Below, piece by piece: positions 4,492 through 60,670 of a stretch of DNA of 64,000 nucleotides (the first letter of the stretch is position 1; each line of letters opens with the position of its first letter). Origin of the DNA: Candidatus Anoxychlamydiales bacterium. GTDB lineage: Bacteria > Chlamydiota > Chlamydiia > Chlamydiales > SM23-39. The stretch is taken from positions 23 to 64,022 of the forward strand of contig JAAKFI010000002.1 of the NCBI GenBank assembly GCA_011065125.1, in the 5' to 3' direction. The notes under the pieces were generated by a model. The model ran no database searches and was not told the origin of the DNA. It saw only the letters and a list, made by a program, of their open reading frames with translations. The translations under genes and the position numbers were made by a program.

Positions 4492-4508
4492 AAAAAGGTT
4501 AATTAATA

Positions 4509-6605: not shown

Positions 6606-6616
6606 GTAAGTAACTT

Positions 6617-6943: not shown

Positions 6944-6952
6944 TTAAAAATG

Positions 6953-6978: not shown

Positions 6979-6996
6979 TGTTAAATCTTTAATATT

Positions 6997-8953: not shown

Positions 8954-9027
8954 GCTATTTTATAATAGCAATATAAGCATGATTTAGTTTAGAATTCAAT
9001 ATAATTGAAATAACAAATTTTAAATTT

Positions 9028-9750: not shown

Positions 9751-9752
9751 AA

Positions 9753-11756: not shown

Positions 11757-11864
11757 AAATATCCCCTTTTTAATAATAATAACAAATTTTTTGAAAAGCA
11801 CAATATAATTGAAACCTTAAAGATTTTTATCTATAATATACATAATTAAATCACATGATATTTT

Positions 11865-12560: not shown

Positions 12561-12620
12561 ACTTCCTTCTTTTTAATAAATTTAAATAAATATATTATTT
12601 AATTTAAAGTAGGAATTTTG

Positions 12621-14704: not shown

Positions 14705-14737
14705 AATAGTTCTTTTTTTATAAAAAAAGGATTTTAT

Positions 14738-15280: not shown

Positions 15281-15350
15281 TTAATTTTTATATTCTTTTT
15301 TAAGCTTAAATTTTTTATAAATAAAATTACCAATACAAATTGTTAATTTT

Positions 15351-17933: not shown

Positions 17934-17947
17934 GAGTTAGTATCACT
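17911..17947 (-). terminator. Rho-independent terminator of the 144-aa gene, embedded in the last codons of glgP
   Basis: The minus-strand RNA reads AGUGAUACUAAC-ucuuauuu-GUUAGUAUCACU (perfect 12-bp stem, plus 17916-17927 / 17936-17947) followed by a U-run (plus A-run 17911-17915). Confidence 0.65.
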
Positions 17948-17958
17948 AAAAAAATTAA

Positions 17959-18393
17959 TTACTGTACTTTTTTTTCTGTCGCTGTTGTATCTGGATTTGC
18001 ATCTGCAGCACCAGCTGTTTGAGTCGTCTCAAATAGTTCACCAGCTCTTTTAGCTTTTTCAGCTTCTGCTTCTTTTCCTAAAGCTTGAGCTACAGCAGCA
18101 GGTCTTTCTAATGCAGAATTACTTGCATAATTACAAACAACGCTATATAAGATAGATGCTTTTCTAGCATTTTTAATTTTTCTAGCTAAACCTTTTGAGC
18201 AAGAGAAATTAACAGTTGCATACATAACTGAATAACCTACTTTTTTAGCTCTTCCTAAAAATCCTAAAAAGCAAGTTTTATCCATATCATTTATTTTTTC
18301 AGCTGTAATATCTCTTAAACTTTTTTGTCCAACATTAAATTCACGAGCTTCATTTAAAAGTTGAGTTCTTTTTAAATTTATTTCAACTGCCAT
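17959..18393 (-). CDS. Hypothetical small protein, basic N-terminal two-thirds with an Ala/Glu/Thr-rich low-complexity tail
   Basis: 144 aa. Strong SD (GGAGGA 7 nt upstream of the ATG), its own promoter-like and terminator signals, and visibly higher GC than its neighbours. No family recognised. Confidence 0.7.
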   Translation of the reverse strand: MAVEINLKRTQLLNEAREFNVGQKSLRDITAEKINDMDKTCFLGFLGRAKKVGYSVMYATVNFSCSKGLARKIKNARKASILYSVVCNYASNSALERPAAVAQALGKEAEAEKAKRAGELFETTQTAGAADANPDTTATEKKVQ

Positions 18394-18437
18394 AATATTA
18401 TCCTCCGATATTTGGGTTAATTTATAAAAGTAAAAAG

Positions 18438-18466
18438 ATAATATTCAAATTGAAAATAGCTGACAA
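18438..18466 (-). promoter_or_regulatory. Near-consensus sigma-70-type promoter for the 144-aa gene
   Basis: The minus strand reads TTGTCA (plus 18461-18466), 17-nt spacer, TATTAT (plus 18438-18443). This lies about 45 nt upstream of the ATG at 18393. Confidence 0.4.
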
Positions 18467-18521
18467 TCATTAAAATAATTTCTTTACAAGATTGTTTTAA
18501 TATAAATTAAATTGCTATTAA

Positions 18522-18854
18522 TTATTTACGAAAATACACGTAATTTCTATGATGATTATCAAGCGCGCCTTTTAAAATTAATCTAGCTCCAATTCTTTCA
18601 ATGAAAGTTGATATAAAATGCAGTTCTTCCGGTAAAAATTTTGTAATTTTTCTATAAAATATAGCTCTTACTCTAGTCTTTAATCCTAAATAACAAAATT
18701 TATAAATCTCTTCTATTTTTCTTTGTTCTAAATATTGATTATTTCCATATAAATTTTTGTACACACACACTTGTAGTGCATATTTGTATGCTTTACTTCT
18801 TTGTATCGGATCATAATTTTTAAGAGAAAAATTTAATATTAATTTAATGACCAT
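18522..18854 (-). CDS. Hypothetical protein (Tyr/Lys-rich, 110 aa)
   Basis: 110-codon stop-free frame with a single ATG. It overlaps the 3' end of the upstream SBP gene by 16 nt. No motif recognised. Confidence 0.4.
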   Translation of the reverse strand: MVIKLILNFSLKNYDPIQRSKAYKYALQVCVYKNLYGNNQYLEQRKIEEIYKFCYLGLKTRVRAIFYRKITKFLPEELHFISTFIERIGARLILKGALDNHHRNYVYFRK

Positions 18855-19573
18855 TTATCTATAAGCTTTTTCAATTCACCATTTTTTTTATATTTTTCAA
18901 TATAAAAATCTATTATTTTAAGTATTTTGAGATTTTGATTTTTTAAAGTAATAATGCGAATAGCTTCATCACTAACAGGTGATTTTAAAATTTTTAAAGT
19001 ATTATAGTAATTATCTTCGATATATTTTCTAGCTATAATAATAGGTAGTAAAAAAGCATCTATTTGATTATCTTCCAAATCTTTAAAACCATTTGGTATA
19101 TTTGCATATTTTTCTGCAAAAACTTCATATTTTTGTAAAACATCATATAGAGCATCATCACTTATATAACCTATATGTTTTTGAAAAAGATCATCAATAG
19201 TTTTATAAGATGAATCTTTTTCAACTATCAATACATACCCTATATCTAAGATGTTTTTAGAAAAATCAAATTTTGCTAAGTTAAAATTATACATTTGCAT
19301 ATTTGATAAAACAGATCCATATTTATGGTTTTTTAAGCCATTTAATAAGTCATTATTGTTTGTATTGATAAGCGATATATTATGATTGGAGTCTCTTGCT
19401 ATTTTTATAAATAAATCTTGAAAAAACCCATTTAAATTGGCGCTTTGGCCATTTGTAACAATATTTTCCCACTCATTATTATAACCAATAGAAAAAGAAA
19501 TATTTTTTCTCTTAGTACAAGAAATACTAGATAACAATAATAATAAAATTAGTAAAACTTTCAATTTTTTCAT
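18839..19573 (-). CDS. Periplasmic amino-acid-binding lipoprotein (SBP family 3, ArtJ-like)
   Basis: Lipobox LSSISC. Overall SBP_bac_3-like pattern (...DLLNGLKNHKYGSVLSNM...IGYISDD...IDAFLLP...). 244 aa. Confidence 0.65.
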   Translation of the reverse strand: MKKLKVLLILLLLLSSISCTKRKNISFSIGYNNEWENIVTNGQSANLNGFFQDLFIKIARDSNHNISLINTNNNDLLNGLKNHKYGSVLSNMQMYNFNLAKFDFSKNILDIGYVLIVEKDSSYKTIDDLFQKHIGYISDDALYDVLQKYEVFAEKYANIPNGFKDLEDNQIDAFLLPIIIARKYIEDNYYNTLKILKSPVSDEAIRIITLKNQNLKILKIIDFYIEKYKKNGELKKLIDKWSLN

Positions 19574-42597: not shown

Positions 42598-43926
42598 ATG
42601 TACAAAAATAAGAAAATAGCTCTTATTTTACTTATGGGAGGAGTTGGAAATAGATTCAGCTCAGACATCCCCAAACAATTTTATAATTTATCTGGAAAAA
42701 AAATTTATATAAGAACTTTAGATGCTTTTTATAAATTGAATATCTTTGATGAAATTGTTTTACCATGCAAAAAAGAATATATCCCCCAAGTAAAGGAAGA
42801 TTTAAAAGCTTACAAAAACATCAAAGTAATAGAAGGTGGAAGTACTAGACAAAAATCTTCTTACCAAGCACTAAAAAGCTTAAACAATCCAAATATTGTA
42901 GTAATTCACGATTCAGTAAGACCTTTTGTTAGTAAAAAAATAATTATTGAAAACATTTTAGCTGCTATTAAATATAAAGCGGTGGACACATGCATTAATT
43001 CTACTGACACCCTTGTAATAACACATGAAAATTTCATTAAAAATATCCCTAATAGAAATATTTTTTTAAGAGGTCAAACACCTCAAAGTTTTGAGTATAA
43101 ATTAATTTTATCAGCTCACGAAAAAGCTATAAAAAATAATATTTTAAATAAAACTGATGACTGCCAATTAGTTTTAGAAAATAACAAAGTTTTCATTGTA
43201 AATGGGGATGAAAATAATATTAAAATAACAACAAAATTAGATCTTTTTTTAGCAGAACAACTACTTAGATTGAAATTAGAAAAAGTCACTTTTAATATAA
43301 AAAATAAATTAGATAATAAAATATTTGCAATAATTGGAGCGAGTGGTGATATAGGCTCTGAAATTAGAAAAGAACTAGAAAAACAAAATGCTAAAGCTCT
43401 ATTAATTTCTAGAAATTCATACTATAAAACAGATATTACAAAATATAGTGATGTGAAAAGGACTTTTAATCTTATTTATAAAAAATATGGCAAAATTGAT
43501 GGGCTCATAAATGCATCTGGTCTTTTAGTCGTAAAAACTGTAGATAAAATCAAAGAAAAAGAAATCGATGAAATCATAAAAGTAAATTTACTAGGCTTAA
43601 TATATGTATGTAAATATGCAAAAATAAAAGATGGTGGTCATATAATAAACATTTCATCTTCCTCTTATACCTATGGAAGAAAAAATTATGGTGTTTACTC
43701 TTCTACAAAAGCAGCAGTTGTAAATTTCACTCAAAGTTTATCTCAAGAACTTGAAAAATTAAAAGTAAATGTAATTGTGCCTCAAAGATGTAATACTAAA
43801 ATGAGGAAAAAATACTTCCAAAATGAAGATCCTAAAACTTTATTAGATAAAAATAAAGTAGCTAAGGGAATAATTGATACATTAAAAAGTGACTTTACAG
43901 GATTAACTATTGAAATAAAGAAATGA
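42598..43926 (+). CDS. Bifunctional IspD/TarI-type cytidylyltransferase + short-chain dehydrogenase/reductase (Bcs1-like candidate CDP-ribitol synthase)
   Basis: The N-terminal half carries the IspD-family motifs MGGVGNRF...PKQFYNL, GGSTRQKSS, IHDSVRPF, GQTPQSF, TDDCQL and NIKITTKLDL.LAE. The C-terminal half is an SDR: IIGASGDIGSEI (Gly-rich NAD(P) loop), NASG, and SSSS...YSSTKAAV (catalytic YxxxK). Confidence 0.8.
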   Translation: MYKNKKIALILLMGGVGNRFSSDIPKQFYNLSGKKIYIRTLDAFYKLNIFDEIVLPCKKEYIPQVKEDLKAYKNIKVIEGGSTRQKSSYQALKSLNNPNIVVIHDSVRPFVSKKIIIENILAAIKYKAVDTCINSTDTLVITHENFIKNIPNRNIFLRGQTPQSFEYKLILSAHEKAIKNNILNKTDDCQLVLENNKVFIVNGDENNIKITTKLDLFLAEQLLRLKLEKVTFNIKNKLDNKIFAIIGASGDIGSEIRKELEKQNAKALLISRNSYYKTDITKYSDVKRTFNLIYKKYGKIDGLINASGLLVVKTVDKIKEKEIDEIIKVNLLGLIYVCKYAKIKDGGHIINISSSSYTYGRKNYGVYSSTKAAVVNFTQSLSQELEKLKVNVIVPQRCNTKMRKKYFQNEDPKTLLDKNKVAKGIIDTLKSDFTGLTIEIKK

Positions 43927-46611: not shown

Positions 46612-49600
46612 ATGAATAAGGTGAACATTACAAAAAAGATAACAATAGTATTAAATATAATTCTTATAATTTTTTTAATGATTATATTTAAGACTTGGCA
46701 TTTATCTGTCATACAAAGAGAGGATAAGAAAAAATTATCCGATGCTCCCAGAAAAAGATCTATTATAATAAAGCCAAACAGAGGGACTATATATGACAGA
46801 GCTTCAGTGCCTCTTGCTATCAATAGGATAAAATATAATGCAACTATATACTATTCTCATTTAAAACAGATTCCCTCTTTTGCTTATAAAAAAGTTGATG
46901 GGAAAACCATAAAATTACATCCTAGAAATGAGCATATAAAAAAAATATCTTTAATTTTAGCAAAAGAACTTGATCTAGATTCTTTAGAAATAGAAGATTT
47001 AATTCATTCTAAAGCTTCAATTTTTCCAAATGCTCCTTTTATAATAAAAGAAAATATTTCAGAAAAAACTTATTATCGTCTTAGATTTTTACAAAAAGAT
47101 CTTTTAGGAGTAAATGCTGAAATTACAACTCAAAGATTTTATCCCCAACTAGATGCATCATCATCTTTAATTGGGTATATGGGTAAAATCAACACAAATG
47201 AATATTATAAGATCGCTAGTGAAATTAAAACTTTAAAAAGTTTTTTAGAAAAATATGAAAATTTTGAAGAAGTAAGTTTAGAAGCATATAATACAATTGA
47301 AGAGGTTGAAAATAGATTAAAACATTTAACAGATCTCTCATATTCAATTAATGATTATATCGGAAAAACCGGCTTGGAGAAGTCTTTTGAAGAAACTTTA
47401 AAAGGGTTTCATTCAAAAAAGAATTATATAGTTGATATTCAAGGAAATTTTTTAAAGGAACTACCAGGATATGAAAAGCCCAAACCTGGCAAACAAATAA
47501 ATTTAACAATCTCCTCTGAACTTCAAAAATATGCAGAACAGCTGCTTGCTGAAGATGAAAAAATAAGAGATGACGCTTCCAAAAAATATGATATTAAAAA
47601 TAAAAAGTTAGTTGAACTCAAAACATCTTGGATTAAGGGCGGATCAATAATTGCAATAGATCCAAATACTTTCGAAGTTATTGCAATGGCGACTTTTCCA
47701 ATTTTCAATCCAAATGATTTCATATTAGATATGAATAATATCGATAAAAATAAAAAAGATAATATAAACAAATATTTAGAAACTAATTTACATATCAAAA
47801 ATATTTTTGATGGCAAAAAAAAATTAGAGCGAAAAATTTATTTTAAGGAATACATAACTGAAGAAAAAGAACTTAGTTTAGATGTTTTTTTAAATACTAT
47901 TTTAGAAAAAAACAGTCCAATATTGCCAGCTATTGATAAAATTAATACGATAAAAAATGCAATTGAAATTCAAGAAGCCATAGATTTTCTACTATATATA
48001 ACAAAATCTAATGCTTCAAATTTGATAGATTTTATCTTTGATAGTAGTTCAAATATTTTAATAAATAAAAATCAAGACCTTGTACAAAACGATGAAATTA
48101 AATCTTTATTAAATTTAGATAAGGATTATGTAAATTCATTAATTTATATCCTAAAAAAACATCTTTCTTCTATCCCTGATAACAGAGATAAGCTTTTTAC
48201 AATTGATATTTTAAAAGTTTTAGTTTTTAGCCCCGCTTTTTCTAATGAATTGATTGATGAATTTAAATTTCTAAATCTATCAACATATTTAAAACTTTCA
48301 AAAGCCTCATTGAAAGTAACTAATTATTTGAAAAATAAAATAAAACCTATTTTCCATGAGCTTACTTTCTTGCCTTTTAGAGAAAAAAAATTAAAAGACT
48401 TCTTAAAAGAAAAAAGAAAGATTGAAAAAGAAAAGAAAATGTTTCCAAGACCTTACATTGATTATTTAAAAAAAGAAGAAAATAAACAATTTGATGAGTT
48501 TTGGCAAAAGCATCATTTGCTTTTTTTAACCTGTTTTTTAAAAAATGATAAATTATTTGCTTTTGATGATTTAGAACCTTATTTAGATAAAATACTTCAA
48601 GAAAAAGAAAATATCGATGAAATCTTACTAGATGATTATCAACTTTTATCTTTTCATTTAAAAAATTTAAATTTTGATTTAACTTGTAATTTTTTTAAAA
48701 CTATTAGATCTTTTGATGATCTAGATAGACCTTTACTTTATAATTATCCAAGGCTTAGAAAAAGTAAAAACATTAAACTTGAAAAAGATTTAGCTGCATC
48801 TTTTTACCCCATAAATGGGTATGGTTTTTCAAAATCTTACGCTCTCTTTTCAAATGCTGCTATTGGATCGATTTTTAAACTTGTACCTTCATATTGCGCT
48901 TTAAAAGAGAGATATATGTATTTAAAAGAAAACAATCTTTCTTTGAATTATTTAAATCCTTTAACAATTATCGATGATATTTACTATGATTCTAATAAAA
49001 AATCTAAAGGGCTCGCTGTCGCTAAAAGTTTATCGAATATTCCTTATTATAGAAGATATAAAGGCGGTAGGCTACCTAAAAGCGCCCATCCTCAAATTGG
49101 CAAAATTGATTTAATACATGCTTTAGAAAAATCATCAAACCCTTATTTTTCAATACTTAGCTCAGATCATATTACTGATACAAGAGACTTACTTAAAGCA
49201 GCGAAAGATTTTTCAATAGGAAAAAAAACAAATATTGACCTTCCCTATGAATCTGCTGGGAATCTACCTGAAGATATTTTATTTGATAAAACATCACTTT
49301 ATTCATTTGCTATAGGACAGCACTCATTAATTATATCCCCCCTTCAAACAGCTGTTATGTTATCTTCTATTGCAAATGGTGGATATGTTTATAAACCAAA
49401 ATTAATAAAAGATGAAAAATCTCTTTTAATAAATAAGATATTTATGCCTTCTGAAATTAGAAATATTATCCTTGAAGGAATGGATCTTGTAGTATCATCT
49501 GACAAAGGAAGCGCAAGACCAAACGCTATTAAAAAATTTATCTCAAAACCTAAAGAAATTAGTGAATATAAAGCTATGTTTCATCAATTTGTTGGAAAAA

Positions 49601-49860
49601 CATCAACCGCTGAATTTATGAGTAATTTAAGTTTTAATCCCTCTTCTAAAGCAATAAAATATAAAAATATTTGGTTTGGAGCTATATCCTTTGAAGATCC
49701 TGGATATGAAGTTACAGACTATAATAAAAAATCGGTTTGGAAAAAACCTGAACTTGTAGTAGTAGTTGTCTTAAATTATGGAGATAATGGTAAAGAAGCT
49801 GCACCTTTAGCATATAAAATTGTAAAAAAATATAGAGAACTAAAAGAAAAATTAAATTAA
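46612..49860 (+). CDS. pbp2: Penicillin-binding protein 2-type transpeptidase with a large internal insertion (chlamydial PBP2-like, 1082 aa)
   Basis: N-terminal TM plus PBP dimerisation-domain start (RGTIYDRASVPLAIN). GGSIIAIDPNTFEVIAMATFPIFNPNDF at residues ~343-370. The active-site SxxK (SIFK) appears only at ~753-756, SxN (SSN) at ~841-843 and K(T/S)G-like KTS at ~995-997. Confidence 0.9.
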   Translation: MNKVNITKKITIVLNIILIIFLMIIFKTWHLSVIQREDKKKLSDAPRKRSIIIKPNRGTIYDRASVPLAINRIKYNATIYYSHLKQIPSFAYKKVDGKTIKLHPRNEHIKKISLILAKELDLDSLEIEDLIHSKASIFPNAPFIIKENISEKTYYRLRFLQKDLLGVNAEITTQRFYPQLDASSSLIGYMGKINTNEYYKIASEIKTLKSFLEKYENFEEVSLEAYNTIEEVENRLKHLTDLSYSINDYIGKTGLEKSFEETLKGFHSKKNYIVDIQGNFLKELPGYEKPKPGKQINLTISSELQKYAEQLLAEDEKIRDDASKKYDIKNKKLVELKTSWIKGGSIIAIDPNTFEVIAMATFPIFNPNDFILDMNNIDKNKKDNINKYLETNLHIKNIFDGKKKLERKIYFKEYITEEKELSLDVFLNTILEKNSPILPAIDKINTIKNAIEIQEAIDFLLYITKSNASNLIDFIFDSSSNILINKNQDLVQNDEIKSLLNLDKDYVNSLIYILKKHLSSIPDNRDKLFTIDILKVLVFSPAFSNELIDEFKFLNLSTYLKLSKASLKVTNYLKNKIKPIFHELTFLPFREKKLKDFLKEKRKIEKEKKMFPRPYIDYLKKEENKQFDEFWQKHHLLFLTCFLKNDKLFAFDDLEPYLDKILQEKENIDEILLDDYQLLSFHLKNLNFDLTCNFFKTIRSFDDLDRPLLYNYPRLRKSKNIKLEKDLAASFYPINGYGFSKSYALFSNAAIGSIFKLVPSYCALKERYMYLKENNLSLNYLNPLTIIDDIYYDSNKKSKGLAVAKSLSNIPYYRRYKGGRLPKSAHPQIGKIDLIHALEKSSNPYFSILSSDHITDTRDLLKAAKDFSIGKKTNIDLPYESAGNLPEDILFDKTSLYSFAIGQHSLIISPLQTAVMLSSIANGGYVYKPKLIKDEKSLLINKIFMPSEIRNIILEGMDLVVSSDKGSARPNAIKKFISKPKEISEYKAMFHQFVGKTSTAEFMSNLSFNPSSKAIKYKNIWFGAISFEDPGYEVTDYNKKSVWKKPELVVVVVLNYGDNGKEAAPLAYKIVKKYRELKEKLN

Positions 49861-50189: not shown

Positions 50190-51179
50190 TTACAGATTTA
50201 CTTTCAAATCATTTTCTTTAGATAATAAAGAATCAAAATACTCTATAGTCTTAAAAAGACCTTCTTCAAGATGAACTTTAGGTTCCCAGTTTAATAATTT
50301 TTTAGCTTTAGATATATCCGGCTTTCTTTGTTTAGGATCATCTTGAGGTAAATCTTTAAAAATTATTTTTGATTTAGAAGAAGTTAACTTCATAATTAGA
50401 TTTGCAAGTTCAATAATTGTAAATTCTATAGGATTTCCAAGATTAATTGGTCCTGTAATAGAATCGTTTGAATCCATTAACTTTCTAAAACCATCTATTA
50501 AATCATCCACATAGCAAAATGATCTTGTTTGCTTGCCTTGACCATATACGGTAATATCTTCGTTTTTTAAAGCTTGGACTATAAAATTAGATACTACCCT
50601 TCCATCTTGTGGGTGCATTCTAGGTCCATACGTATTGAATATCCTACATACTTTTATAAAAACGTTATATTGCCTGTGATAATCAAAGAAAAGAGTTTCT
50701 GCGCATCTTTTAGATTCATCATAACATGCTCTTATTCCAATTGGGTTTACATTACCAAAATACTCTTCTTTTTGTGGATGAACAAATGGATCTCCATATA
50801 CTTCTGATGTTGATGCTTGAAATATTTTAGCATTTAATCTTTTTGCAAGCCCTAACACATTAATAGCTCCATGAACTGATGTCTTAACTGTTTGAACTGG
50901 ATCTTCTTGATAATGTATAGGAGATGCTGGACATGCTAAATTATAAATCTCATCTACTTCTAAATACATTGGAAAACATACATCGTGCCTTAAAACTTCA
51001 AAATATGGATTTTTGGTTAAATGGAAAATATTTTGTTTACTTCCTGTATAAAAATTATCTAAACAAATAACTTCGCAGTTTTCATTTAAAAGTTTCTCAC
51101 ATAAATGAGATCCTAAAAAACCACCTCCGCCTGTAACTAGAACTTTTTTTCTCTCGTTTTCAAATTTATTTTTTCTCAT
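50190..51179 (-). CDS. uxs: UDP-glucuronate decarboxylase (UDP-xylose synthase type extended SDR)
   Basis: [50 protein letters not shown] (YxxxK), [10 protein letters not shown]....[11 protein letters not shown] and [10 protein letters not shown] are highly characteristic of UXS/ArnA-decarboxylase-like enzymes. Confidence 0.88.
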
Positions 51180-51957
51180 AATCTAAAAAACCAACATTTT
51201 CAAAGTTTTTAATCTCAATCCTTTTCAAATCTTCATATGTTTCATTTTTATAAGAAATAATTACTTTATTTGAAAATTTAAAAAAAGCTTTAGCTTCACT
51301 TTTATTTATGTCTAAATTTGTATAAAAAATGATGTTATCATATTTTTCTTTTAAATGATTAATAATCTCCATGAAAGTTTTAGAATATAGAATTTCAAAA
51401 CAATCCTCTACTTTTTTTCCAAGATATAAATAATCAAAATAATCTAACTTTTTAATAGCTGTTTTTTTTATGCTTTTATCTATCATATGTAACAGAGAAA
51501 TATCAGAGGATTTTGTTGTGTCTATTAAAAGCACTTTTCTTTGAGAAAATGAAAGCAATTTTGATAAAGCAAATGAATAATTTTTAGAATATGAAGATAT
51601 TAATGAAGTTACTTTAGAATCTTTCATAAAAGAAATTACATTTCTTAGAGAATTTTTTGTGTTTTTAGAAATGTTATCCATTTCTTCAATATCTTTTTCT
51701 ATTATTCCTAGATATTTTAAATTTTGAGATAAAAGAGTATTTTTAGAAATTGGAAATCCTATTAAAATAGTTTTATATAAAAAAACTACAAAAGAGAGGA
51801 AAAAAACTAATATAAAAGCAATAAAACTATATAAGAAAAGTTTTGGTTTATCTGGAGCTAATGAAACATATGATCTATCTATTATTTTTGAATCTATAAT
51901 AGATAAATTATGATCTACTATTTTAGATTCTATCAAGCTTGATATAGAATCTAACAT
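51166..51957 (-). CDS. C-terminal fragment of a Wzc-like polysaccharide co-polymerase (TM2 + degenerate BY-kinase-like domain); same frame as 52396..53892, so possibly a pseudogene
   Basis: [26 protein letters not shown] is the Pro-rich motif plus TM2 of the Wzz/PCP fold. It is followed by a P-loop-ATPase-like domain in which Walker A (SSYSKNYS vs GxxxxGKT), Walker A' (VLLIDTTKS) and Walker B (NIIFYTNL) are all degenerate. There is no C-terminal Tyr cluster. Confidence 0.7.
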
Positions 51958-52395
51958 TTTAAGAGTAAGATCTTTTTTAATTATTAATTTTTTATCTAAG
52001 CTAATTTTTTTAGTAACATCTAAAGTATGCTTTTTTAAAATATCTAACTTATTTAAAACTTTTAGTTTTTCTTCTTTTAAAATATTTAGATTATTTTTAA
52101 TAAATTCTTTTTTATCTTTTTCTAAAAAAACTATGTTTTTGTTAATAGCATCAATTTTTAAATTATTTATTTCGTTGAGTTTAGATTTTGTAATGCTAAG
52201 TTCAATTTGCTTTATTTCAAATAAATCATTTAAGTGATTAAAAAAATATTTCTTTTCTATTCCAAGCTCAATTTCAGATTTTTTTCTCTCCGATATCAGA
52301 TAGTTTTTTTCATCAAAAATAATTGAATCTAAATTTTTTATTTTTTTTATAAATGATAAACTAATTTCATCCTTTAACTTTGAGAAAAATATACT

Positions 52396-53892
52396 TTAAG
52401 TTTTTCCATTAGCTAAATTTTTTATTATGAAATTTAAATGTTCTAAATCTAAATTTATCTTATCTTTTTTAGAACTCAAATCTAAATATTTTTTTTGTAA
52501 AATATCTAAATCTAACACCTCTATGTTTTTAATAGAATTTAGGTTATTTAAAATGCCTTTAAAAAGGTGTAAATCTTTTTGTCTTTGAATTAGATGTTTT
52601 TCAAATTCTTTTTTTTGAGGGTTTGTGTCTATTAAAACATTGTATTTAGAAAAAATTGAATTTTTAAAAATTGAATTTTTAAAATTTTTTAAAATAAATT
52701 CATTTTGATCTAATTCGTCTTGAATATTTTTTAATTTTTTAATTTTTTTGTTTATTGATTTTTGATCTAACATATTTAAATTAAAAAATGAAATTTGATC
52801 TTTTCGGTTATTAAGATCACAAATTTTTTGAGTTATTTCTTTAATCTTTGGATGAATCCTATCATTTGTAAATTTAGAATCTATTTGATCTTCTAAACAA
52901 ATAATATTTTTATCAATTTCTTCTAACTCTTTAAAAAATATTTTTTTTGTATTTAATAAAGCACTAATTTCAGTATCAAGGCCTGTTTCATAACTGTTTT
53001 TTGTAAGTTCTATTAAATAATCTTCATATTCTTTTAATGCTAAATTCAACTCCGTTAATAAATTTTCTTTTTTTTCTTTTAAAAAATTTAATTGCTCATT
53101 ATTAATTTCATCGTTTTCTTTTTTTAAAATATCAATATATGTTTGCATTAAAGTATCTAGCAATAGTAAAGATATTTTTTTATCCCTGCTTGGATAAGAA
53201 AGATTTAACAAATTAGTATTGTCTTTAGAAGAAATGATCTTTAATTTAGAAATTACATGTTTTGTAATATCAATCCATGGACTTATTTTTATTTTATATT
53301 CTTGATTAAGTTTTAAATTTTTTACAGGTTCTACTAGAGAAAATTCTAAATCTTTTATTTTTATTTTTTCTTGAATATTAGATTTTGTTAAAAAAAAATG
53401 ATTTTCATCTAAAACTTCAAAGCAATCCTTTGATAAAAACCTTAGATAGATAAAAGTAGGTTTTGTCTTTTCATATTTAGCATCTTGAAAATAAAAAAAC
53501 CTTGGAGTTTTTAATTCTTTATTAAGCTCTGCTCTGTAATTTAAAATAAAATTCTTTTTGTATTTATCTATAAATTTATCTTCTTTTACCTCTTCTATTT
53601 GCAAAGCTAATTTTTCAACTACTTGTTTAATTATTTTTTGTGTTTTAAAAAAAGAAGCAGCCTTATTAGATGAATTGGAAGAATTATTAAAAATAATACT
53701 CTCAAGGCCTTTTGAAACTCCTTTTTTTAAACTCCCATCTTGAAAAAGAGCATATGATGTATATTTTAGATCAAATTTTGCAAAAAATAAAAATACAAAT
53801 ATAAAAGCTATAAATGAACTAAAAAAAATAATATTTTTTTTTCTTTTAAAAAGATCCACCATATCTGATAGGCAAAAAAAACTTTCATTCAT
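52396..53892 (-). CDS. N-terminal fragment of a Wzc-like polysaccharide co-polymerase (TM1 + Wzz-type periplasmic coiled-coil domain)
   Basis: The N-terminal DLFKRKKNIIFFSSFIAFIFVFLFFAKF (TM1) is followed by a long helical/coiled-coil region. It is coupled (8-nt overlap) to the upstream wza-like gene and ends at a TAA that is in frame with the next ORF. Confidence 0.7.
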   Translation of the reverse strand: MNESFFCLSDMVDLFKRKKNIIFFSSFIAFIFVFLFFAKFDLKYTSYALFQDGSLKKGVSKGLESIIFNNSSNSSNKAASFFKTQKIIKQVVEKLALQIEEVKEDKFIDKYKKNFILNYRAELNKELKTPRFFYFQDAKYEKTKPTFIYLRFLSKDCFEVLDENHFFLTKSNIQEKIKIKDLEFSLVEPVKNLKLNQEYKIKISPWIDITKHVISKLKIISSKDNTNLLNLSYPSRDKKISLLLLDTLMQTYIDILKKENDEINNEQLNFLKEKKENLLTELNLALKEYEDYLIELTKNSYETGLDTEISALLNTKKIFFKELEEIDKNIICLEDQIDSKFTNDRIHPKIKEITQKICDLNNRKDQISFFNLNMLDQKSINKKIKKLKNIQDELDQNEFILKNFKNSIFKNSIFSKYNVLIDTNPQKKEFEKHLIQRQKDLHLFKGILNNLNSIKNIEVLDLDILQKKYLDLSSKKDKINLDLEHLNFIIKNLANGKT

Positions 53893-54949
53893 TGATAAAA
53901 AGACCTAAATTTTTAAAACCTTGAACAGCAGAATTTACTATTCCTACAGTTGGCAACATTTGAGATACAAATTTATTCCAGTTTGCAATTGGATTTGTTG
54001 ATACATAAACAATATCACCTGGCATTAAAAGAAGTGCGTCATCTCTTAAATATAAAATATGCTTAAATGAAATAAGATATATCTTTGGGTTTACTATGCT
54101 TCCTCTAATTACTTGAATATTTAAACTATCCGCATTAGAGGTTATCCCTCCAGCTTTGGCTATTGCTTCTTTTATTGGCATAAATCCATTTGTAGCATTT
54201 ATCACATTAGGATTTTTTACCTCGCCTAATATAGCTATATTTGAAGTGTCAGATGCAATGTATACTTTATCTCCACTTTTCAAAACTATATTGTAAGACA
54301 TATCCCCCTCTTTCAAGAGTTTGTAAAAATCCACGTTTAAAAATTTTTTATCTCTTATAATATAACTTTTAAAAAGGTTGGCATGTATAGGCAGTTTTGC
54401 ATCAGATAAAAGATCGAATAATCTTTTTTTCCCATCTACGTCATATGTTGAAATAGAACTGAGTCCTGCTATTTTAACAATTTGTGTATTCCTCGTTTTA
54501 TAGGAAGTAAAAACTTTAACATCTTCAAGCTCTTGTTTTATTCTGTTTTCTATTTTTTTATTTGCTTGATCTAAAGTTAAATTTTTAACATCAATAGAAT
54601 CTATATTGGGAATATCAATTTTATAACCTTTTACTATAAAGCCATTTAAATTTGATATTTTTAAAAAAAAGTCTTCTAAATCTTTTCTTTTTGGATGATA
54701 GATAAATATATTTAATACATCCAGATTTTCTATATAATTTTCTCTTGTTTTTAGCAGCGTAGGATCTAAACTTGCGATTTCAAATCCTTGCATTTCTAAA
54801 ATTGCACTTTTCCCTTCTTTGATCTTGTAAGAATCCATCACAAGTTCATCACAACCAACTTTATCTGGACAAGATACTTTGCTTGCACAACTTGCAAAAA
54901 TTAATAATAATAAAATTAAAATATTTTTTTTAATTTTTAGGAAAAACAT
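53885..54949 (-). CDS. wza: Outer-membrane polysaccharide export lipoprotein (Wza/OPX family: Poly_export + SLBB domains)
   Basis: Lipobox IFASC. DVLNIFIYHP..., KGYKIDIPNIDSIDVKNLTLDQANKKIE, VKIAGLSSISTYDV, GDKVYI, ILGEVKNPNV...PIKEAIAKAGGITSNAD...IRG and PGDIVYV follow the OPX domain pattern. Confidence 0.8.
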   Translation of the reverse strand: MFFLKIKKNILILLLLIFASCASKVSCPDKVGCDELVMDSYKIKEGKSAILEMQGFEIASLDPTLLKTRENYIENLDVLNIFIYHPKRKDLEDFFLKISNLNGFIVKGYKIDIPNIDSIDVKNLTLDQANKKIENRIKQELEDVKVFTSYKTRNTQIVKIAGLSSISTYDVDGKKRLFDLLSDAKLPIHANLFKSYIIRDKKFLNVDFYKLLKEGDMSYNIVLKSGDKVYIASDTSNIAILGEVKNPNVINATNGFMPIKEAIAKAGGITSNADSLNIQVIRGSIVNPKIYLISFKHILYLRDDALLLMPGDIVYVSTNPIANWNKFVSQMLPTVGIVNSAVQGFKNLGLFINE

Positions 54950-55020
54950 ATAATTTTAAACTTAATTATTTTAAAATAGATAAAATCTTATAACATATAA
55001 TTTTAAAAAACAAAAAAAAT

Positions 55021-55968
55021 ATGAAAAGAATATTTATTACCGGAATAGCAGGCTTTATTGGTTTTCATTTAGCAAAATATTTAAAAAGCAAAAATATTGA
55101 AGTAATAGGAATTGATAATTTTAATGACTACTATGATGTGAATTTAAAAAAATTAAGAAAAAATATTTTAGAAAAAGAAAATATCAAAGTAATTAAATTA
55201 GACATAAATGAAAAAAATGAATTAGAAAAACTCCTTAAAGAAAATAAAATTACCCATTTTGTAAATTTAGCCGCTCAAGCAGGTGTTAGATATTCAATAG
55301 AAAATCCCTATGCTTATTTAAGATCAAATATTGATGGCTTCGTTAGCGTTCTTGAAGTATTAAAAGACAAAGATATTAAACTTATTTTCGCTTCTTCTTC
55401 TTCTGTGTATGGAGATAATAAAAAAACTCCTTTTTCTACCCTTGATAGAACAGATACTCCAACTAATTTATATGGCGCTACAAAAAAAGCAAATGAATCC
55501 TTAGCCTACGCTTATAATTCAATGTATAACACTCCTATGATAGGACTTAGATTTTTTACAGTTTATGGTCCTTATGGCAGACCTGATATGGCATATTATA
55601 GCTTTACTAAAGATATATTAGAGAAAAAACCAATTAAGATATTTAACAACGGGAATATGCAAAGAGATTTTACATATATTGATGATATTATATCTGGAAT
55701 ATATTCATCTCTAGATTATGAAACCTCTTTTGAAATTTTCAATTTAGGAAATAATAAACCTATAAATTTACTTACTTTCATATCTATTATTGAAAAAAGA
55801 TTAAATATAAAAGCTATAAAAGAGTTTATGCCCTTTCAAAAAGGAGAGATGTTAACTACCTTTGCAGATATTGAAAATTCTAAAAATAAGCTTAACTTTA
55901 ATCCTAAAACCTCAATTGAAAAGGGAATAGATACTTTTATTTCTTGGTATGAACAAGAAATGGTTTGA
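55021..55968 (+). CDS. UDP-glucuronate 4-epimerase (extended SDR, GAE/Cap1J-like)
   Basis: IFITGIAGFIGFHLAKYL, LAAQAGVRYSIENPYAY..SNI.GF, SSSSVYG, YGATKKANE (YxxxK) and GLRFFTVYGPYGRPDMAYY, the GAE signature. Confidence 0.85.
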   Translation: MKRIFITGIAGFIGFHLAKYLKSKNIEVIGIDNFNDYYDVNLKKLRKNILEKENIKVIKLDINEKNELEKLLKENKITHFVNLAAQAGVRYSIENPYAYLRSNIDGFVSVLEVLKDKDIKLIFASSSSVYGDNKKTPFSTLDRTDTPTNLYGATKKANESLAYAYNSMYNTPMIGLRFFTVYGPYGRPDMAYYSFTKDILEKKPIKIFNNGNMQRDFTYIDDIISGIYSSLDYETSFEIFNLGNNKPINLLTFISIIEKRLNIKAIKEFMPFQKGEMLTTFADIENSKNKLNFNPKTSIEKGIDTFISWYEQEMV

Positions 55969-55972
55969 TCTT

Positions 55973-57136
55973 CTAGCCAAACATCAATAGAGATGGTTTA
56001 AAAATTAATAAAATTCCTAATATCAATAAAATGCTTCCTCCTATTAAATGAGTAAACCTTGAAAATTTACCACTAATATTAAGTAAGTTTAAAGTATATA
56101 CGGCAATTACAAAAATTATTAAGTCATCTAACATAAAAATTAAAATATATAAAAGAATATAAGAGTAATAACTAAAAGAACTCAAATTAGAAAGAGAGAG
56201 TATCTGTAAATATACGACTGGAAGTCCAGCAGAGCATATAAGCTCTATTAAATTTACAAAAAAAGCTAATAATATTATCCCAATAGATGCAAAAAAAAGA
56301 TTTTTTTTATTTGTTAAAAAAGTGATTTTTTCTTTTGTTTTTTCTTTGAATTTAGAAGACGTCACGTTACAAGTAATATTTTTTTTAAAAAACTCTTTTA
56401 AATAATATACTCCACCAATGATAGCAATGGATCCTATTACAAACTTTATCCATTTTACATAAGAGAAAAACATTAAAAAATTAAGCCAAGCTATCATAAA
56501 CATCAAATAGACTAAAGATGATGTTAAAATAAATAAAAATCCTAAAAAAAATAGTTTTTTTCTATTATTTATAGTAATTAAAAAAGAAAGCAACATAACA
56601 AGCGCCCACATAGCGCATGGATTAAATCCATCAACTAAAGCAATTAGTATAGTAATAAGTGGCAGTGATAAATTTTTTAAATTTATCTCTTTTAAAAAAG
56701 GAAGTTTGATTTTTTCAATAACGTTATGCTTGCCATTTTTTAAATCTACCTCTTCTTTTTTTTTTATACTTTCGATTAGATCTATAGATTGATTTTCATA
56801 TGCATATAAAATTGCATTTTCTATATTTTTTCCAGTAGTTTCCTCTGATAAAAACCCAGCAAAATATCTATCTCCTACAACTGTTAGTGGAACTCTTGGA
56901 TTTTTAATATTAAATTTTTGTGCAACTTTTTTATATAAAATTTGATTTTCTTTTTTTAAGTAAATATCAAAGTTTTGAACGTTTATATAAGAATATTTTT
57001 TTTGTAATTTTTCTAAAAAAACTTTCTCTTTTTTACAGTGAGGACACTCTTTAGATGAAAAAAGATATATATTAACTTTTTCATTAGAAAATAAAAAAGA
57101 GCTTAAAAATATAAAAATTATTAAAAATTTTTTCAT
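55973..57136 (-). CDS. Thioredoxin-fold (CPHC) domain fused to a DsbD/CcdA-superfamily membrane domain
   Basis: Signal peptide, then IYLFSSKECPHCKKEKVFL (glutaredoxin/thioredoxin-like CxxC). The membrane domain has conserved Cys in DGFNPCAMWAL and LICSAGLPV, i.e. one Cys per half as in CcdA/DsbD-beta. Confidence 0.7.
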   Translation of the reverse strand: MKKFLIIFIFLSSFLFSNEKVNIYLFSSKECPHCKKEKVFLEKLQKKYSYINVQNFDIYLKKENQILYKKVAQKFNIKNPRVPLTVVGDRYFAGFLSEETTGKNIENAILYAYENQSIDLIESIKKKEEVDLKNGKHNVIEKIKLPFLKEINLKNLSLPLITILIALVDGFNPCAMWALVMLLSFLITINNRKKLFFLGFLFILTSSLVYLMFMIAWLNFLMFFSYVKWIKFVIGSIAIIGGVYYLKEFFKKNITCNVTSSKFKEKTKEKITFLTNKKNLFFASIGIILLAFFVNLIELICSAGLPVVYLQILSLSNLSSFSYYSYILLYILIFMLDDLIIFVIAVYTLNLLNISGKFSRFTHLIGGSILLILGILLIFKPSLLMFG

Positions 57137-58085: not shown

Positions 58086-58637
58086 TTAATGAGAAGTCTC
58101 ATAATTAAATCTTTTACATAATCCTAATTCTATTCTAAAATTATTTTCTACATTCCAAGCTGCTTGTTCCAATTTATTTGGAAATCTAGGATCTAGAGGA
58201 ATGTCCTCATAACTTAAATTTTCTAAAAATTGTACAATATGTACAAGCTCATGAAATAGTCCTGCAGCTATTACTCGGATATCTTCAGCTCTATTATTAG
58301 CAGCATATTCCCTCTCCTCTTCTCCAAATCTATTTTCTATAATGCAAAACTCTCTTATTGAAAGTATATTTGTAAAGTCTGGAAAATGAATTACCCCTAA
58401 TTTATCTTTAAAAATTTCAACTGTTCTTGCTTCCCAAAATTTCCCCTCTTCAATAAAAATCCTATTAACCTCTGTTGCCATAAGGATGGCTAACATAAGC
58501 TTGCCAGTATTAGTCTGCTTAATCATTCCTAAAGCACTTTTAATAACTTCAGTATTTGATTTTTTACAATCAATGAAATAAAAAAGATCCTCAATAGTAG
58601 GTTCTATTCCTGTGGGATTATATATTAAAAGACTCAT
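58086..58637 (-). CDS. Small zincin-like metalloprotease candidate (HExxH), possibly M91/NleD-HopH1-like effector fold
   Basis: HELVH at codons 129-133 (plus 58239-58253, read as CAT GAG CTT GTA CAT on the minus strand). No signal peptide. The layout ...ALGMIKQTNTGKLMLAIL...NRIFIEEG...GVIHFP...AAGLFHELVHI resembles the M91 effector-protease pattern from memory. ATGA overlap with the upstream gene. Confidence 0.55.
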   Translation of the reverse strand: MSLLIYNPTGIEPTIEDLFYFIDCKKSNTEVIKSALGMIKQTNTGKLMLAILMATEVNRIFIEEGKFWEARTVEIFKDKLGVIHFPDFTNILSIREFCIIENRFGEEEREYAANNRAEDIRVIAAGLFHELVHIVQFLENLSYEDIPLDPRFPNKLEQAAWNVENNFRIELGLCKRFNYETSH

Positions 58638-60670
58638 GCGGTTTTCATTTTTTGTTTGCTTGTTTTTAAAAGATCTTTATTTAAATCTACATCTTGAGAT
58701 TCTGTTTGAGGAGAAACATTTCTGTTATTAGGATTAGCATTCACAAAGGCATCTAAAAAGCTAGTTCCCCCCATTCCAAGGTTATAAGAGCATAACACTC
58801 TACTTGCTATATTTTTACCAACTAGAGCTTTATTTCCAGCAGATAGAATTAAAGCAGGTGCAGCAAATTGAGAAGCATATAACCCTGTTAAAAAACCTTT
58901 AATAACCATTTTCTTAAATAATTCTTTTTTAACTTCATTAAAAAGATCATCTACTTTGACTGCTTCTTCATTAGATAAATGCTTGAGTGCTTTTAAAACT
59001 AATTGAGGATTTAATAAAGATCCAAAATTAACAATTTTTTGAATCGAAGCTAAATAAATTTCTTCTATATAAATTTGCAGTTTAATCTCTTCTAATTTTT
59101 TATCTGCTATTTCTATTTTCTGAATAGCTGCTAATTGACTTATCCAATGCTTTTTTTTGTCTTCATTTGTCGATGTTTTGATTCTTTTTTCAATCCATTT
59201 TTCAACATCGATTTTTTTCATTTTTTTAATTTCTTTATATTTTTTATCTACTTCTTCTTTTGTTAATATGAATTTTTCACGTAAATATTTTTCTTTGTCT
59301 TTAGAGTCTATTTCTTTATATCTTTTTATAATGTCTATCAACATTTTTATAGAAAATGCTGTCGCACAGATAAAACAAATAAAATTAATTCCATACATCC
59401 CAGGGGAATTTATTAAATTAATTATAGTTAAAATCCCTGCTAATAATGTCGTAACACTATAAACAATATTAAGAATTGCTTTTACTTGAGCTTTTTTATC
59501 ATTAGATTTGATAGCATTTTTAAACTCTGTTACTGAAGCTGTTGATTGTGTATATCCAGATAAAACTAATAAAACACCAGCTGGATATCCAATGCAACTT
59601 TCTATAGTATGGATAGCAGATAATGTAGATAATGGTATATGAAGATTATTATGTGATAATATTAGTGTTGTAATGAATATAGTTCCTAGTATTGACAGTA
59701 AAATTCCGTTTAAAATTGCATTTGAAGTCCCCGATAATAAATAAGTATCTTCTAATCTCTTAATCTCGTTTAAATAACTTTCAATAACTTGTAGCGTTGG
59801 TATAATCTTTTTGTTTGTTTTCCTTATGATTTTATCTAAATTTTTTAAATGAGGATTCTTAGAATCAAAAGTTTTGAATCCTTTTTTGAAAAAATCTGTT
59901 TTATTTTTTAATCTAAAAAGTAAAATTGTTAAAGCAATAACTGGTATACCTAAACCTAACAAATAAGGCGTTGCCATATTAAGATTTTGAATTCCTAAAT
60001 GCAAAGAACTAGATCCACAAAGTAAATACAGAGCAGGTGAATGAGGTAAAACAACTGTAGGTAAAAATGTCCCAATTCCAATAGTTAATGCAAAAAACCC
60101 TAAAAATAATGTGGATACCAAAACAGCTGTAATTATTGGGTTTACTTTGCTTTCTTTTTCTTTTCTTATTTCAGCATCTAAAGCGCCTGTTACATGTTTA
60201 AGCGTTTTATCTATTAAACTTTTATTGAAGATTTCAATAGTTTTGGATTTTAAAAAATCTTGGTTAATTTGATCTAATTCAAAAGTATCTTCAAAATTAT
60301 CTGATTTTTTTCTTGTATCGTCTATCCACAATAGTGGAGTTTTATTTTCTTTAAAAATCACTCTATAAGAAGCCGTGGATAGTCTTTCTGCACCCTGCTG
60401 TTCATATGATTTTTTTAATACTTTTTCGAAAAAAGTCTTTGTTTTTGTAAGACCGTACTTAGTATTTTCATGTCCTAATTTTTTAATATCTTCTTTTGAT
60501 AGATCATATGTTATAATTTCTTCTTGAGTTCCTTTTTTGAATATTTTTAAAGCAACTTTATATGTTTTTTCGTCAGTCTTTTTAGAAACAACTAATTCAA
60601 CATCACACTGTTCACTTATTAGAACACTTAAATCTCTGTCTTTAGCTGTTTTTTCTACTTTCGTACACAT
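58634..60670 (-). CDS. Large membrane protein with three paired hydrophobic lobes and coiled-coil regions (Inc-like or translocator-like candidate T3SS substrate)
   Basis: 678 aa. Soluble N-terminal ~175 aa, hydrophobic clusters at ~180-255, ~325-385 and ~405-450, a Lys/Glu-rich coiled-coil at ~450-540, and a further amphipathic/hydrophobic C-terminal segment. No family recognised. Confidence 0.6.
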   Translation of the reverse strand: MCTKVEKTAKDRDLSVLISEQCDVELVVSKKTDEKTYKVALKIFKKGTQEEIITYDLSKEDIKKLGHENTKYGLTKTKTFFEKVLKKSYEQQGAERLSTASYRVIFKENKTPLLWIDDTRKKSDNFEDTFELDQINQDFLKSKTIEIFNKSLIDKTLKHVTGALDAEIRKEKESKVNPIITAVLVSTLFLGFFALTIGIGTFLPTVVLPHSPALYLLCGSSSLHLGIQNLNMATPYLLGLGIPVIALTILLFRLKNKTDFFKKGFKTFDSKNPHLKNLDKIIRKTNKKIIPTLQVIESYLNEIKRLEDTYLLSGTSNAILNGILLSILGTIFITTLILSHNNLHIPLSTLSAIHTIESCIGYPAGVLLVLSGYTQSTASVTEFKNAIKSNDKKAQVKAILNIVYSVTTLLAGILTIINLINSPGMYGINFICFICATAFSIKMLIDIIKRYKEIDSKDKEKYLREKFILTKEEVDKKYKEIKKMKKIDVEKWIEKRIKTSTNEDKKKHWISQLAAIQKIEIADKKLEEIKLQIYIEEIYLASIQKIVNFGSLLNPQLVLKALKHLSNEEAVKVDDLFNEVKKELFKKMVIKGFLTGLYASQFAAPALILSAGNKALVGKNIASRVLCSYNLGMGGTSFLDAFVNANPNNRNVSPQTESQDVDLNKDLLKTSKQKMKTA

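Follow-up and report, generated by a model that had tools for sequence, protein, structure and literature searches.

The window, a stretch of 64,000 nucleotides of Candidatus Anoxychlamydiales DNA, carries on its minus strand a Wzc-like gene that is interrupted by one in-frame stop codon and overlaps both of its immediate neighbours. The following features are relevant for the reading frame and its surroundings:

50190..51179, minus strand: NAD-dependent sugar epimerase/dehydratase gene; overlaps the stop of the Wzc-like gene, syntenic, product 85-86% identical to the orthologues
51166..53892, minus strand: Wzc-like gene (PCP-2a type by prediction), 908 sense codons plus the internal TAA; orthologue of P0001 and P0002
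51955..51957, minus strand: ATG of the 263-aa 'downstream ORF', apparently an internal Met (M646), with no Shine-Dalgarno sequence upstream (aagatcttactcttaaaATG)
51958..52395, minus strand: stop-free stretch of 146 codons that continues the periplasmic helical domain; dN/dS against the orthologues 0.25-0.32
52396..52398, minus strand: internal stop in frame (TAA, codon 499); where the window has T at 52398, the other assembly has A (AAA, Lys)
53885..54949, minus strand: gene for a Wza-like outer-membrane polysaccharide export protein of 354 aa (SLBB_2 2e-17, Poly_export, Wza_C; PRK15078 5e-24)
55021..55968, plus strand: second NAD-dependent epimerase/dehydratase gene, pointing away from the Wza gene and with its synteny kept in relatives

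Translation of 53892..51166 on the minus strand gives one frame of 909 codons with a single internal TAA at codon 499 (52398..52396) in addition to the terminal TAA. The 146 codons from the internal TAA to the ATG at 51957 contain no stops. The local base frequencies (A 0.50, T 0.33) imply 0.115 as the chance that any one codon is a stop, and an open run of this length would arise by chance with a probability of about 1.8e-8; the remaining five frames contain 33-123 stops each over the same span. Despite this random-codon stop probability, the gene has one lesion in 908 codons. The earlier note had described a Wzc-like frame of ~908 codons with a single in-frame TAA and an improbably long open stretch behind it, and the translation confirms this description. 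Neither ATG nor GTG nor TTG occurs within the 146 codons 3' of the TAA (51958..52395), and no Shine-Dalgarno-like sequence was found after it; ATA and ATT codons are located 2 and 12 codons past the stop. The column of M646 holds Met in 82 of 150 family sequences, and as judged from this alignment the ATG at 51957 encodes a conserved internal Met and is no true start.

Comparison with orthologues in related genomes, a check that the earlier note had proposed, showed that the gene is unbroken elsewhere. The proteins P0001 and P0002 are intact orthologues of 905 and 904 amino acids with 55-56% identity, which are colinear over 100% of the length and have no gap at the stop; the codon count across the stop junction is exactly the same in the window and in these orthologues. 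Synteny around the gene is the same in the related loci L001 and L002, and the neighbouring genes are intact. The Wzc-like family comprises 795 cluster representatives in Chlamydiota, with proteins of 850-1000 amino acids that are annotated merely as 'hypothetical protein'. Of the best 149 of these 795 representatives, 141 are single chains that include TM1, the region of the stop and the C-terminal domain; no stop or break occurs at the column of codon 499, which all 149 read through. This column, which is 99% occupied and has Leu as the consensus residue (Ser, encoded by AGC, in the close orthologues), lies inside a conserved periplasmic motif, P.FE.SSLS..L.D. Scans for further orthologues in genome contigs (2) and metagenome contigs (2) returned chance matches only. 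Because the intact orthologues, with the same gene order around them, align colinearly through the stop position and the family has the protein in one chain, 53892..51166 is one gene, not two. A naturally split gene was also considered and rejected, since there is no usual start codon for 146 codons and 0/149 relatives are split at the stop column.

The Wzc-like identity claimed in the earlier note is supported by profile and structure searches. A family profile run against the PDB matched E. coli K30 Wzc with E=3e-38, covering both halves of the protein (7nhr/9r62 3e-38 to 3e-35), and the kinase domains of Wzc, Etk, VpsO, BceF and CapAB with 5e-11 to 8e-6 (3la6 4.6e-11, 3cio 8.6e-11). Searched by itself, the window protein stays below the thresholds of Pfam and NCBIfam (GNVR E=0.004; PRK11519 E=2.6e-4). 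An AF2 model of an orthologue, obtained with a 100-sequence alignment, has a pLDDT of 83; a run with 4 sequences (pLDDT 37) was discarded. Foldseek comparison of the model with known structures gave full-length Wzc at E ~1e-26 (9r68_I 8e-27) and the kinase domains 3la6, 6z0p and 4jmp at ~1e-7. Two transmembrane helices, both aligned to their counterparts in Wzc, flank the helical hairpins, and TM2 lies past the stop, as the earlier note had stated:

53779..53835, minus strand: TM1, residues ~20-38, hydrophobic (IIFFSSFIAFIFVFLFFA); AF2 helix 8-38 in the orthologue
51844-51930, minus strand: GNVR-like/Pro-rich motif before TM2
51775..51840, minus strand: TM2, residues ~685-706; AF2 helix 682-708, aligned to Wzc 403-452
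51169..51759, minus strand: predicted cytoplasmic pseudokinase domain with BY-kinase fold, from the family profile, Foldseek and motif columns
51574-51597, minus strand: remnant P-loop SSYSKNYS, residues 766-773
51508-51534, minus strand: Walker A'-like VLLIDTTKS, residues 787-795
51313-51336, minus strand: Walker B-like NIIFYTNL, residues 853-860

The BY-kinase-fold domain is fused to the PCP part in 141 of the 149 best relatives, and in the window this fusion is interrupted by the TAA. With two transmembrane helices and periplasmic helices between them, homology to Wzc, a fused BY-kinase fold and an adjacent OPX gene, the predicted product is a PCP-2a protein.

Multiple sequence alignment of the family revealed that the kinase motifs are degenerate throughout. 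The three motifs listed above and the lack of a C-terminal tyrosine cluster had been read correctly in the earlier note, and the degeneracy is shared by ~140 chlamydial members. The Walker A pattern G....GK[ST] is found in 0/142 family members, which have GGKGPDYS as the consensus at this position. Alignment to BY-kinases, likewise proposed earlier, matched the fold to the Wzc-type kinases and placed in the P-loop of the family a deletion of five residues that corresponds to 'AGMTF' of the K540M Wzc PDB chain, the position of the Walker A Lys (HMM alignment). The Walker A' motif (hhhhDxDxR) is missing, the columns after 'VLLI' being unconserved in the family, and so is Walker B (hhhhDTPP), with Y, F, V or L in the Asp column. 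Among the last 25 residues of the window protein there are 2 Tyr, and 114 of the 142 family members have at most one in this segment. As the degeneracy is common to the whole family it is not specific to the window copy, and by alignment it is a family-wide trait, not decay of one copy. Both sequence and model indicate that the domain is a natural pseudokinase across the Chlamydiota family.

The origin of the stop codon was examined by comparing the window over 52.8 kb with a second assembly that represents the same organism (ENA scaffold_1040/12246, BioSample SAMN10404973). The two differ by 15 bases in four clusters and by two 10-N gaps in the ENA scaffold. One gap, at 52395, directly adjoins the TAA, and the 66 nt beside this gap contain 9 of the 15 differences, the first base of the stop among them, as compared with 6 in the other 52.7 kb:

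52395..52461, minus strand: assembly-disagreement patch with 9 substitutions, 8/9 at codon positions 1 or 2, their density climbing toward the gap

The ENA assembly has AAA in place of the window TAA and a TAA of its own 16 codons upstream, so that the plus-strand A at 52398, which creates the stop, is contested between the assemblies. By our estimate, from two gaps in 52.8 kb, a stop that had nothing to do with the assembly would land so near a gap with a probability below ~0.5%. The organism is present at ~2-3x per run (runs X1-X6, 80-95% likeness), and 19-39% of the 31-mers occur in the best runs. None of the Logan contigs of the listed runs covers 52150-52650, and the 31-mers of 52300-52520 occur in no run; a look for RNA runs turned up none. 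Since the stop abuts a gap and its base differs between the assemblies, an assembly error is likelier than a biological cause. We consider, with a probability of roughly 0.65, that the internal TAA is a low-coverage base-calling or assembly error in the window and that the gene is probably intact; any such error must be a clean substitution, since the codon count is kept across the junction. Of the three readings offered in the earlier note, sequencing or assembly error is thus the one now best supported, whereas neither decay nor ochre readthrough found support. A 'recoding or pseudogene' signal at an assembly junction in a low-coverage MAG should be given no biological reading without read support.

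Some observations weigh against such an error. At the only other ENA gap, in fusA (4722-4732), the bridging sequence of the window encodes a conserved motif and is hence correct, so that the assembler of the window cannot be called unreliable in general at holes of this kind. The ENA reading is in turn no standard of truth, because the ENA contig end looks error-laden, with its own TAA and a mismatch density that climbs toward the end. Two synonymous differences lie beside the fusA gap and suggest that the sample contains a second strain; a search of the Logan contigs for two fusA haplotypes found only fusA fragments of unrelated organisms.

The main alternative, which we regard as possible but distinctly less probable than an assembly error, is a genuine and very recent nonsense mutation that makes the gene a young pseudogene and that is either fixed or segregates, carried by one of two co-occurring strains. 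The TAA is indeed present in the window with the codon count kept, in an assembly that is right at the fusA gap, and if the fusA differences do reflect a second strain, real polymorphism can break assemblies. Moreover, TTA, AAA, GAA and TCA are all one step from TAA and the family consensus at the column is Leu, and a second public contig seems to carry the proteins of the neighbours without a 498-aa or 263-aa product, which fits a pseudogene annotation. However, a nonsense mutation would have to coincide with one of only two gaps and with a contested first base, all 149 best relatives are intact at the column, and the differences in the patch are non-synonymous in 8 of 9 cases, including a second stop, which is more like error than standing variation. 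There is also no second lesion, relaxed dN/dS or accelerated divergence: dN/dS is 0.23-0.32 downstream of the stop versus 0.32-0.35 upstream, and the divergence ratio of the Wzc-like gene against the L001-L002 pair is ~2.2, within the range of its neighbours (1.5-2.8). Decay of a capsule locus, as the earlier note had suggested, is rejected by these values, and also by motifs that are conserved in intact orthologues and by intact synteny. If the nonsense mutation were real, the co-polymerase would be truncated after 498 residues and the Wza/Wzc-like exporter disabled in this lineage.

It is very unlikely that a real TAA goes together with continued synthesis of the co-polymerase, by low-level ochre readthrough or as two pieces split in the periplasmic domain, or that two strains carry different nonsense codons within 16 codons; the latter would mean a population-level switching-off of the exopolysaccharide exporter. 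Expression in spite of the stop, giving either the full-length protein by ochre readthrough or suppression or a second polypeptide by re-initiation, is by itself still more improbable. The 409 downstream codons look fully functional (dN/dS 0.23-0.27), and the ATA and ATT codons shortly past the stop might serve re-initiation, but 0/149 best relatives have a stop or split at the column and the stop is followed by neither a usual start codon for 146 codons nor a Shine-Dalgarno-like sequence. Most ORFs in the window, 40 of 58, end in TAA, and among the bacterial stop codons UAA is read through least readily. An ochre suppressor tRNA, for which the earlier note had proposed to search, is rejected within the window, as none of its four tRNAs (Phe, Lys, Glu, Gly) has a TTA anticodon. 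A change of the genetic code is rejected as well, because TAA, TGA and TAG all end ORFs. Programmed readthrough of the internal TAA thus finds no support. A two-piece product would be split within P.FE.SSLS..L.D and its second piece would have no N-terminal membrane anchor or signal; if true, such a split point in the periplasmic domain would be new for PCP proteins. Least probable of all is that the disputed 66-nt patch is a hypervariable site (DGR-like mutagenesis or phase variation) with alleles that include stops, as could be suspected from its 9 differences against 6 elsewhere and from the A in one allele at 8 of these 9, since no template-like repeat of the patch exists anywhere in the window, no reverse transcriptase is found among the annotated neighbours, a strand with 50% A will by chance yield differences that involve A, and the patch ends exactly at the scaffold gap with the climbing mismatch density of a low-quality tip.

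Taking the gene as probably intact, its function can be considered together with that of the neighbouring Wza-like gene, whose last 8 nt, including the stop, are shared with the start of the Wzc-like gene; in L001 and L002 the two genes are paired in the same way. We propose that the Wzc-like protein and the translationally coupled Wza-like channel would form a phosphorylation-independent scaffold for trans-envelope polysaccharide export, in which the inactive kinase-fold domain may act as an oligomerisation ring rather than as an enzyme. The Wza/Wzc-like pair is widely conserved in Chlamydiota, mostly in environmental lineages, and the sequences suggest that intracellular chlamydiae may export surface polysaccharide via a long trans-envelope scaffold.

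Similar to E. coli K30/K-12 Wzc (7nhr, 9r62, 3la6), the chlamydial protein has the order TM1, periplasmic helices, TM2 and a cytoplasmic P-loop-type domain, and its gene sits beside a Wza-like OPX gene. Unlike E. coli Wzc, the chlamydial family has ~265-270 extra periplasmic helical residues, within which the TAA is located, its P-loop is deleted, and the Walker A' and B motifs and the Tyr-rich tail are missing. No Wzb-type phosphatase (LMW-PTP) occurs in the Pfam annotations of genes covering 1076-19380 and 29821-64000 of the window. With S. aureus CapA/CapB (PCP-2b) the family shares the fold of the kinase domain (4jmp, 2ved, 4jlv). Whereas the natural split of CapA/CapB is after TM2, the window gene is interrupted 186 residues ahead of TM2, within the periplasmic domain, at a point where 0/149 relatives are split; the claim of the earlier note that the break is off the CapA/CapB-type boundary is therefore correct.

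Also similar by description are the BY pseudokinases, which have a BY-kinase fold without Walker A, A' and B motifs and without a Tyr-rich tail (PMC12004946). Phosphorylation-independent PCP-2 systems of this kind are EcpK/EpsV of M. xanthus and HfsB/HfsA of C. crescentus, and fused forms include SMc01795 of S. meliloti and VV1_2305 of V. vulnificus; the pseudokinases are proposed to act as scaffolds that are needed for polysaccharide synthesis but show no ATP binding or autophosphorylation (PMC12004946). The chlamydial protein resembles the EcpK/HfsB type in its fold without Walker motifs or Tyr tail and the SMc01795 type in the fusion of pseudokinase and PCP. It differs from the described proteins in its phylum, in a much longer periplasmic domain and in a characteristic remnant motif, G-G-K-G-P-D/N-Y-S. 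By its fold and missing motifs the family fits the established class of BY-pseudokinase co-polymerases. Chlamydiota would then have a Wzc in which a BY pseudokinase is fused to the PCP part, the P-loop is deleted and the periplasmic domain exceeds that of E. coli Wzc by ~270 residues, and the phosphorylation-independent PCP-2 subfamily, which was defined recently, would reach into another phylum.

The Wzc-like gene occupies a single frame of 909 codons (window 53892..51166, minus strand) with two stops, an internal TAA (codon 499, 52398..52396) and the TAA that ends it. The ORF listing cuts it into two pieces in the same frame, of 498 aa (52396..53892) and 263 aa (51166..51957). The earlier note described one frame broken by a single TAA and followed by 146 open codons; retranslation agrees, and the description is correct as stated. 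At the base composition found locally (A 0.50, T 0.33), stops would make up 0.115 of random codons, so that the 146 open codons between the internal TAA and the ATG at 51957 would arise by chance with a probability of about 1.8e-8; read in its five remaining frames, the span has 33-123 stops. These codons include no canonical start, and the ATG at 51957 lacks a Shine-Dalgarno sequence and corresponds to an internal Met conserved across the family. The interruption is present in the window sequence as given.

A protein search identified two intact orthologues, P0001 (905 aa) and P0002 (904 aa), with 55-56% identity over 100% of the read-through translation. Their loci have the same gene order as the window:

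Epimerase, divergent
Wza-like gene, 354 aa
Wzc-like gene (window 53892..51166, minus strand)
Epimerase, 326 aa

Across the internal TAA the window aligns to both orthologues colinearly and ungapped, with AGC (Ser) at the stop column; both are unbroken there, which answers the earlier note's question of intact or broken relatives. Searching 1.84 billion cluster representatives with a profile gave 795 relatives, of which 453 at E<=1e-30, nearly all 850-1000 aa long. Among the best 149 of the 795, TM1, the stop region and the C-terminal domain lie on one chain in 141, and the stop column is read through in all 149; the eight exceptions are shortened at a terminus, never at this column. The only fragments among the listed relatives, P0003 (482 aa) and P0004 (263 aa), are both from the window's own organism. 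Named family members are annotated as 'hypothetical protein' in Chlamydiae, Chlamydiota or Parachlamydiales MAGs; the window itself is a marine-sediment chlamydial contig of 26% GC. On these sequence comparisons, the locus is a single Wzc-like gene.

A second assembly of the same organism (ENA ERZ23486238, BioSample SAMN10404973, scaffolds 1040 and 12246) overlaps the window over 52.8 kb. At window position ~19380 scaffold_12246 ends and scaffold_1040 begins; the window contig spans both and therefore stems from a more contiguous assembly. Within the overlap the ENA assembly has two scaffold gaps of 10 N each, and only 15 bases, in four clusters, differ:

fusA, beside a gap: 2 substitutions
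pbp2: 3 C/A substitutions
59869: 1 substitution
52398-52461, ending in the 10-N gap at 52395: 9 substitutions

The second gap thus abuts the internal TAA, whose first base is contested (ACT TAA in the window, ATA AAA in ENA). In the ENA version a different premature TAA (TTA to TAA) stands 16 codons upstream of that of the window, which is why the ENA gene call has only 482 aa. Counted from the gap, the nine differences fall at 3, 4, 5, 11, 12, 17, 50, 59 and 66 nt, their density climbing toward the contig end, and eight of them hit codon positions 1 or 2; the patch has the look of a low-quality tip where coverage fails rather than of standing variation. Nowhere in the window is AT content higher than in the stop region (19.9% GC). 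The best sequencing runs contained 19-39% of the 31-mers from a 10-kb stretch, no run contained any of the 31-mers sampled from 52300-52520, and no Logan contig at >=90% identity covered 52150-52650. Read coverage at the locus is evidently very low.

The EF-G gene fusA (4509-6605, plus strand) is split in scaffold_12246 by the 10-N gap at 4722-4732, and the differences at 4703 and 4706 are synonymous third-position changes (GGA/GGT, ATC/ATT), a hint that the sample contains another, closely related strain. The C/A differences in pbp2 (46612-49860, plus strand) at 46969, 47015 and 47033, within 65 nt, are all non-synonymous (L/I, A/D, A/D); one of the two assemblies is wrong here, which shows that errors at single bases do occur in this low-coverage genome. 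The encoded PBP2 (1082 aa) has a very long insert between its dimerisation (residues 53-283) and transpeptidase (830-1007) domains.

The internal TAA sits at a junction where two assemblies of one sample disagree; it is unverified and probably artefactual, and we put the probability of an assembly artefact at about 0.65. With two gaps in 52.8 kb, we estimate the probability that a stop unrelated to assembly would fall within a few bases of either at well below 1%, so a causal link between the TAA and the coverage hole is much more likely. The codon count across the junction is identical in the window and the orthologues, therefore any error in the window would be a clean substitution. The retained count also fits a genuine, very recent nonsense allele, as does the fusA gap, the other ENA hole, where the bridging sequence of the window encodes a conserved 12-residue motif and is therefore correct. 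Against such an allele stand the position of the TAA at the gap, its contested first base and the low odds of this placement, and we consider it unlikely; if the TAA is real, the allele would be very young. Of the three readings in the earlier note, sequencing or assembly error is thus favoured over recent nonsense mutation, and ochre readthrough finds no support: TAA is the window's normal terminator and the 149 relatives are unbroken at this column. No suppressor tRNA occurs among the four tRNAs of the window (Phe-GAA, Lys-TTT, Glu-TTC, Gly-TCC). An altered genetic code is ruled out, since TAA ends 40 of 58 window ORFs and TGA and TAG are used too, so the code is standard. The proposed decay of the locus finds no support in the dN/dS values against the orthologues, rough because dS (~1.0-1.35) is near saturation, of 0.32-0.35 upstream of the TAA, 0.25-0.32 for the 146 codons 3' of it and 0.23-0.27 for everything downstream. 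The divergence from the orthologues relative to that between their syntenic loci, L001 and L002, is ~2.2, inside the range of five syntenic neighbours (1.5-2.8). A DGR-like origin of the variable patch 52398-52461 was rejected, as no template repeat was found.

As a single sequence the protein gave sub-threshold matches only (GNVR, E=0.004; Wzc PRK11519, E=2.6e-4). A family profile built from 100 sequences matched E. coli K30 Wzc (E=3e-38) in two colinear blocks, TM1 with the periplasmic domain and TM2 with the kinase domain, and the isolated kinase domains of Wzc, Etk, VpsO, BceF and CapAB (5e-11 to 8e-6). The AlphaFold2 model of P0001 (100-sequence alignment, mean pLDDT 83) found 28 full-length Wzc chains as best PDB matches (E down to 8e-27); BY-kinase domains came next, at ~1e-7. 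The periplasmic part is ~265-270 residues longer than in E. coli Wzc, and this extension is predicted to form additional long helices, one modelled at ~130 residues. The internal TAA lies within it, in the family-conserved motif P.FE.SSLS..L.D, at a column that is 99% occupied with consensus Leu.

The upstream gene, whose stop overlaps the start of the Wzc-like gene by 8 nt, encodes a Wza-type OPX protein (SLBB, Poly_export and Wza_C domains). The only genes flanking the pair are two NAD-dependent sugar epimerase/dehydratases (50190-55968 for all four genes), and housekeeping genes lie around them; no gene for Wzx, Wzy or a glycosyltransferase is close by, and this minimal arrangement is kept in L001 and L002. 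A 442-aa fusion (42598-43926, plus strand) of an IspD-type cytidylyltransferase (residues 8-224) and a short-chain dehydrogenase (244-410) has an architecture that presumably recalls bifunctional CDP-ribitol synthases, and may be relevant to the exported polysaccharide. Also syntenic in L001 and L002 are a 387-aa protein (55973-57136, minus strand; 76-80% identity; weak N-terminal glutaredoxin/thioredoxin-like match) and a 678-aa protein (58634-60670, minus strand; 40-42% identity; no Pfam matches), the fastest-evolving of the block. The latter and an adjoining 183-aa ORF (58086-58637, minus strand; weak match to the effector family Peptidase_M91) are possible host-interaction proteins.

The degenerate kinase motifs reported in the earlier note were called correctly; they do not indicate decay, since the degeneracy is family-wide and includes the intact P0001 and P0002, which share the variant motifs (SAKSSNYT, VLIVDTTKE, NIIFLTDL). 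When aligned to BY-kinases, as the earlier note had suggested, the profile matches the kinase domains with a P-loop five residues shorter than in Wzc; the absent residues align to 'AGMTF' of the K540M structure, the position of the Walker A Lys. The family consensus here is G-G-K-G-P-D/N-Y-S, and G....GK[ST] occurs in none of 142 members. Neither the Asp of Walker A' nor that of Walker B is conserved across the family, and 114 of the 142 have at most one Tyr within the last 25 residues. Judged from sequence, a chlamydial family of BY-pseudokinase co-polymerases has this degeneracy as an ancestral and conserved trait, and the Wzc-like protein would act with Wza as a structural co-polymerase and export scaffold with no kinase role. 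As a by-product, the analysis brings to light a widespread and unannotated pair of Wza and Wzc pseudokinase in Chlamydiota. BY pseudokinases, whose BY-kinase fold has neither the Walker A, A' and B motifs nor a Tyr-rich tail, have been described as a class for EcpK of M. xanthus and HfsB of C. crescentus (PMC12004946), and the profile of the chlamydial family is that of a BY pseudokinase, as in these two proteins.
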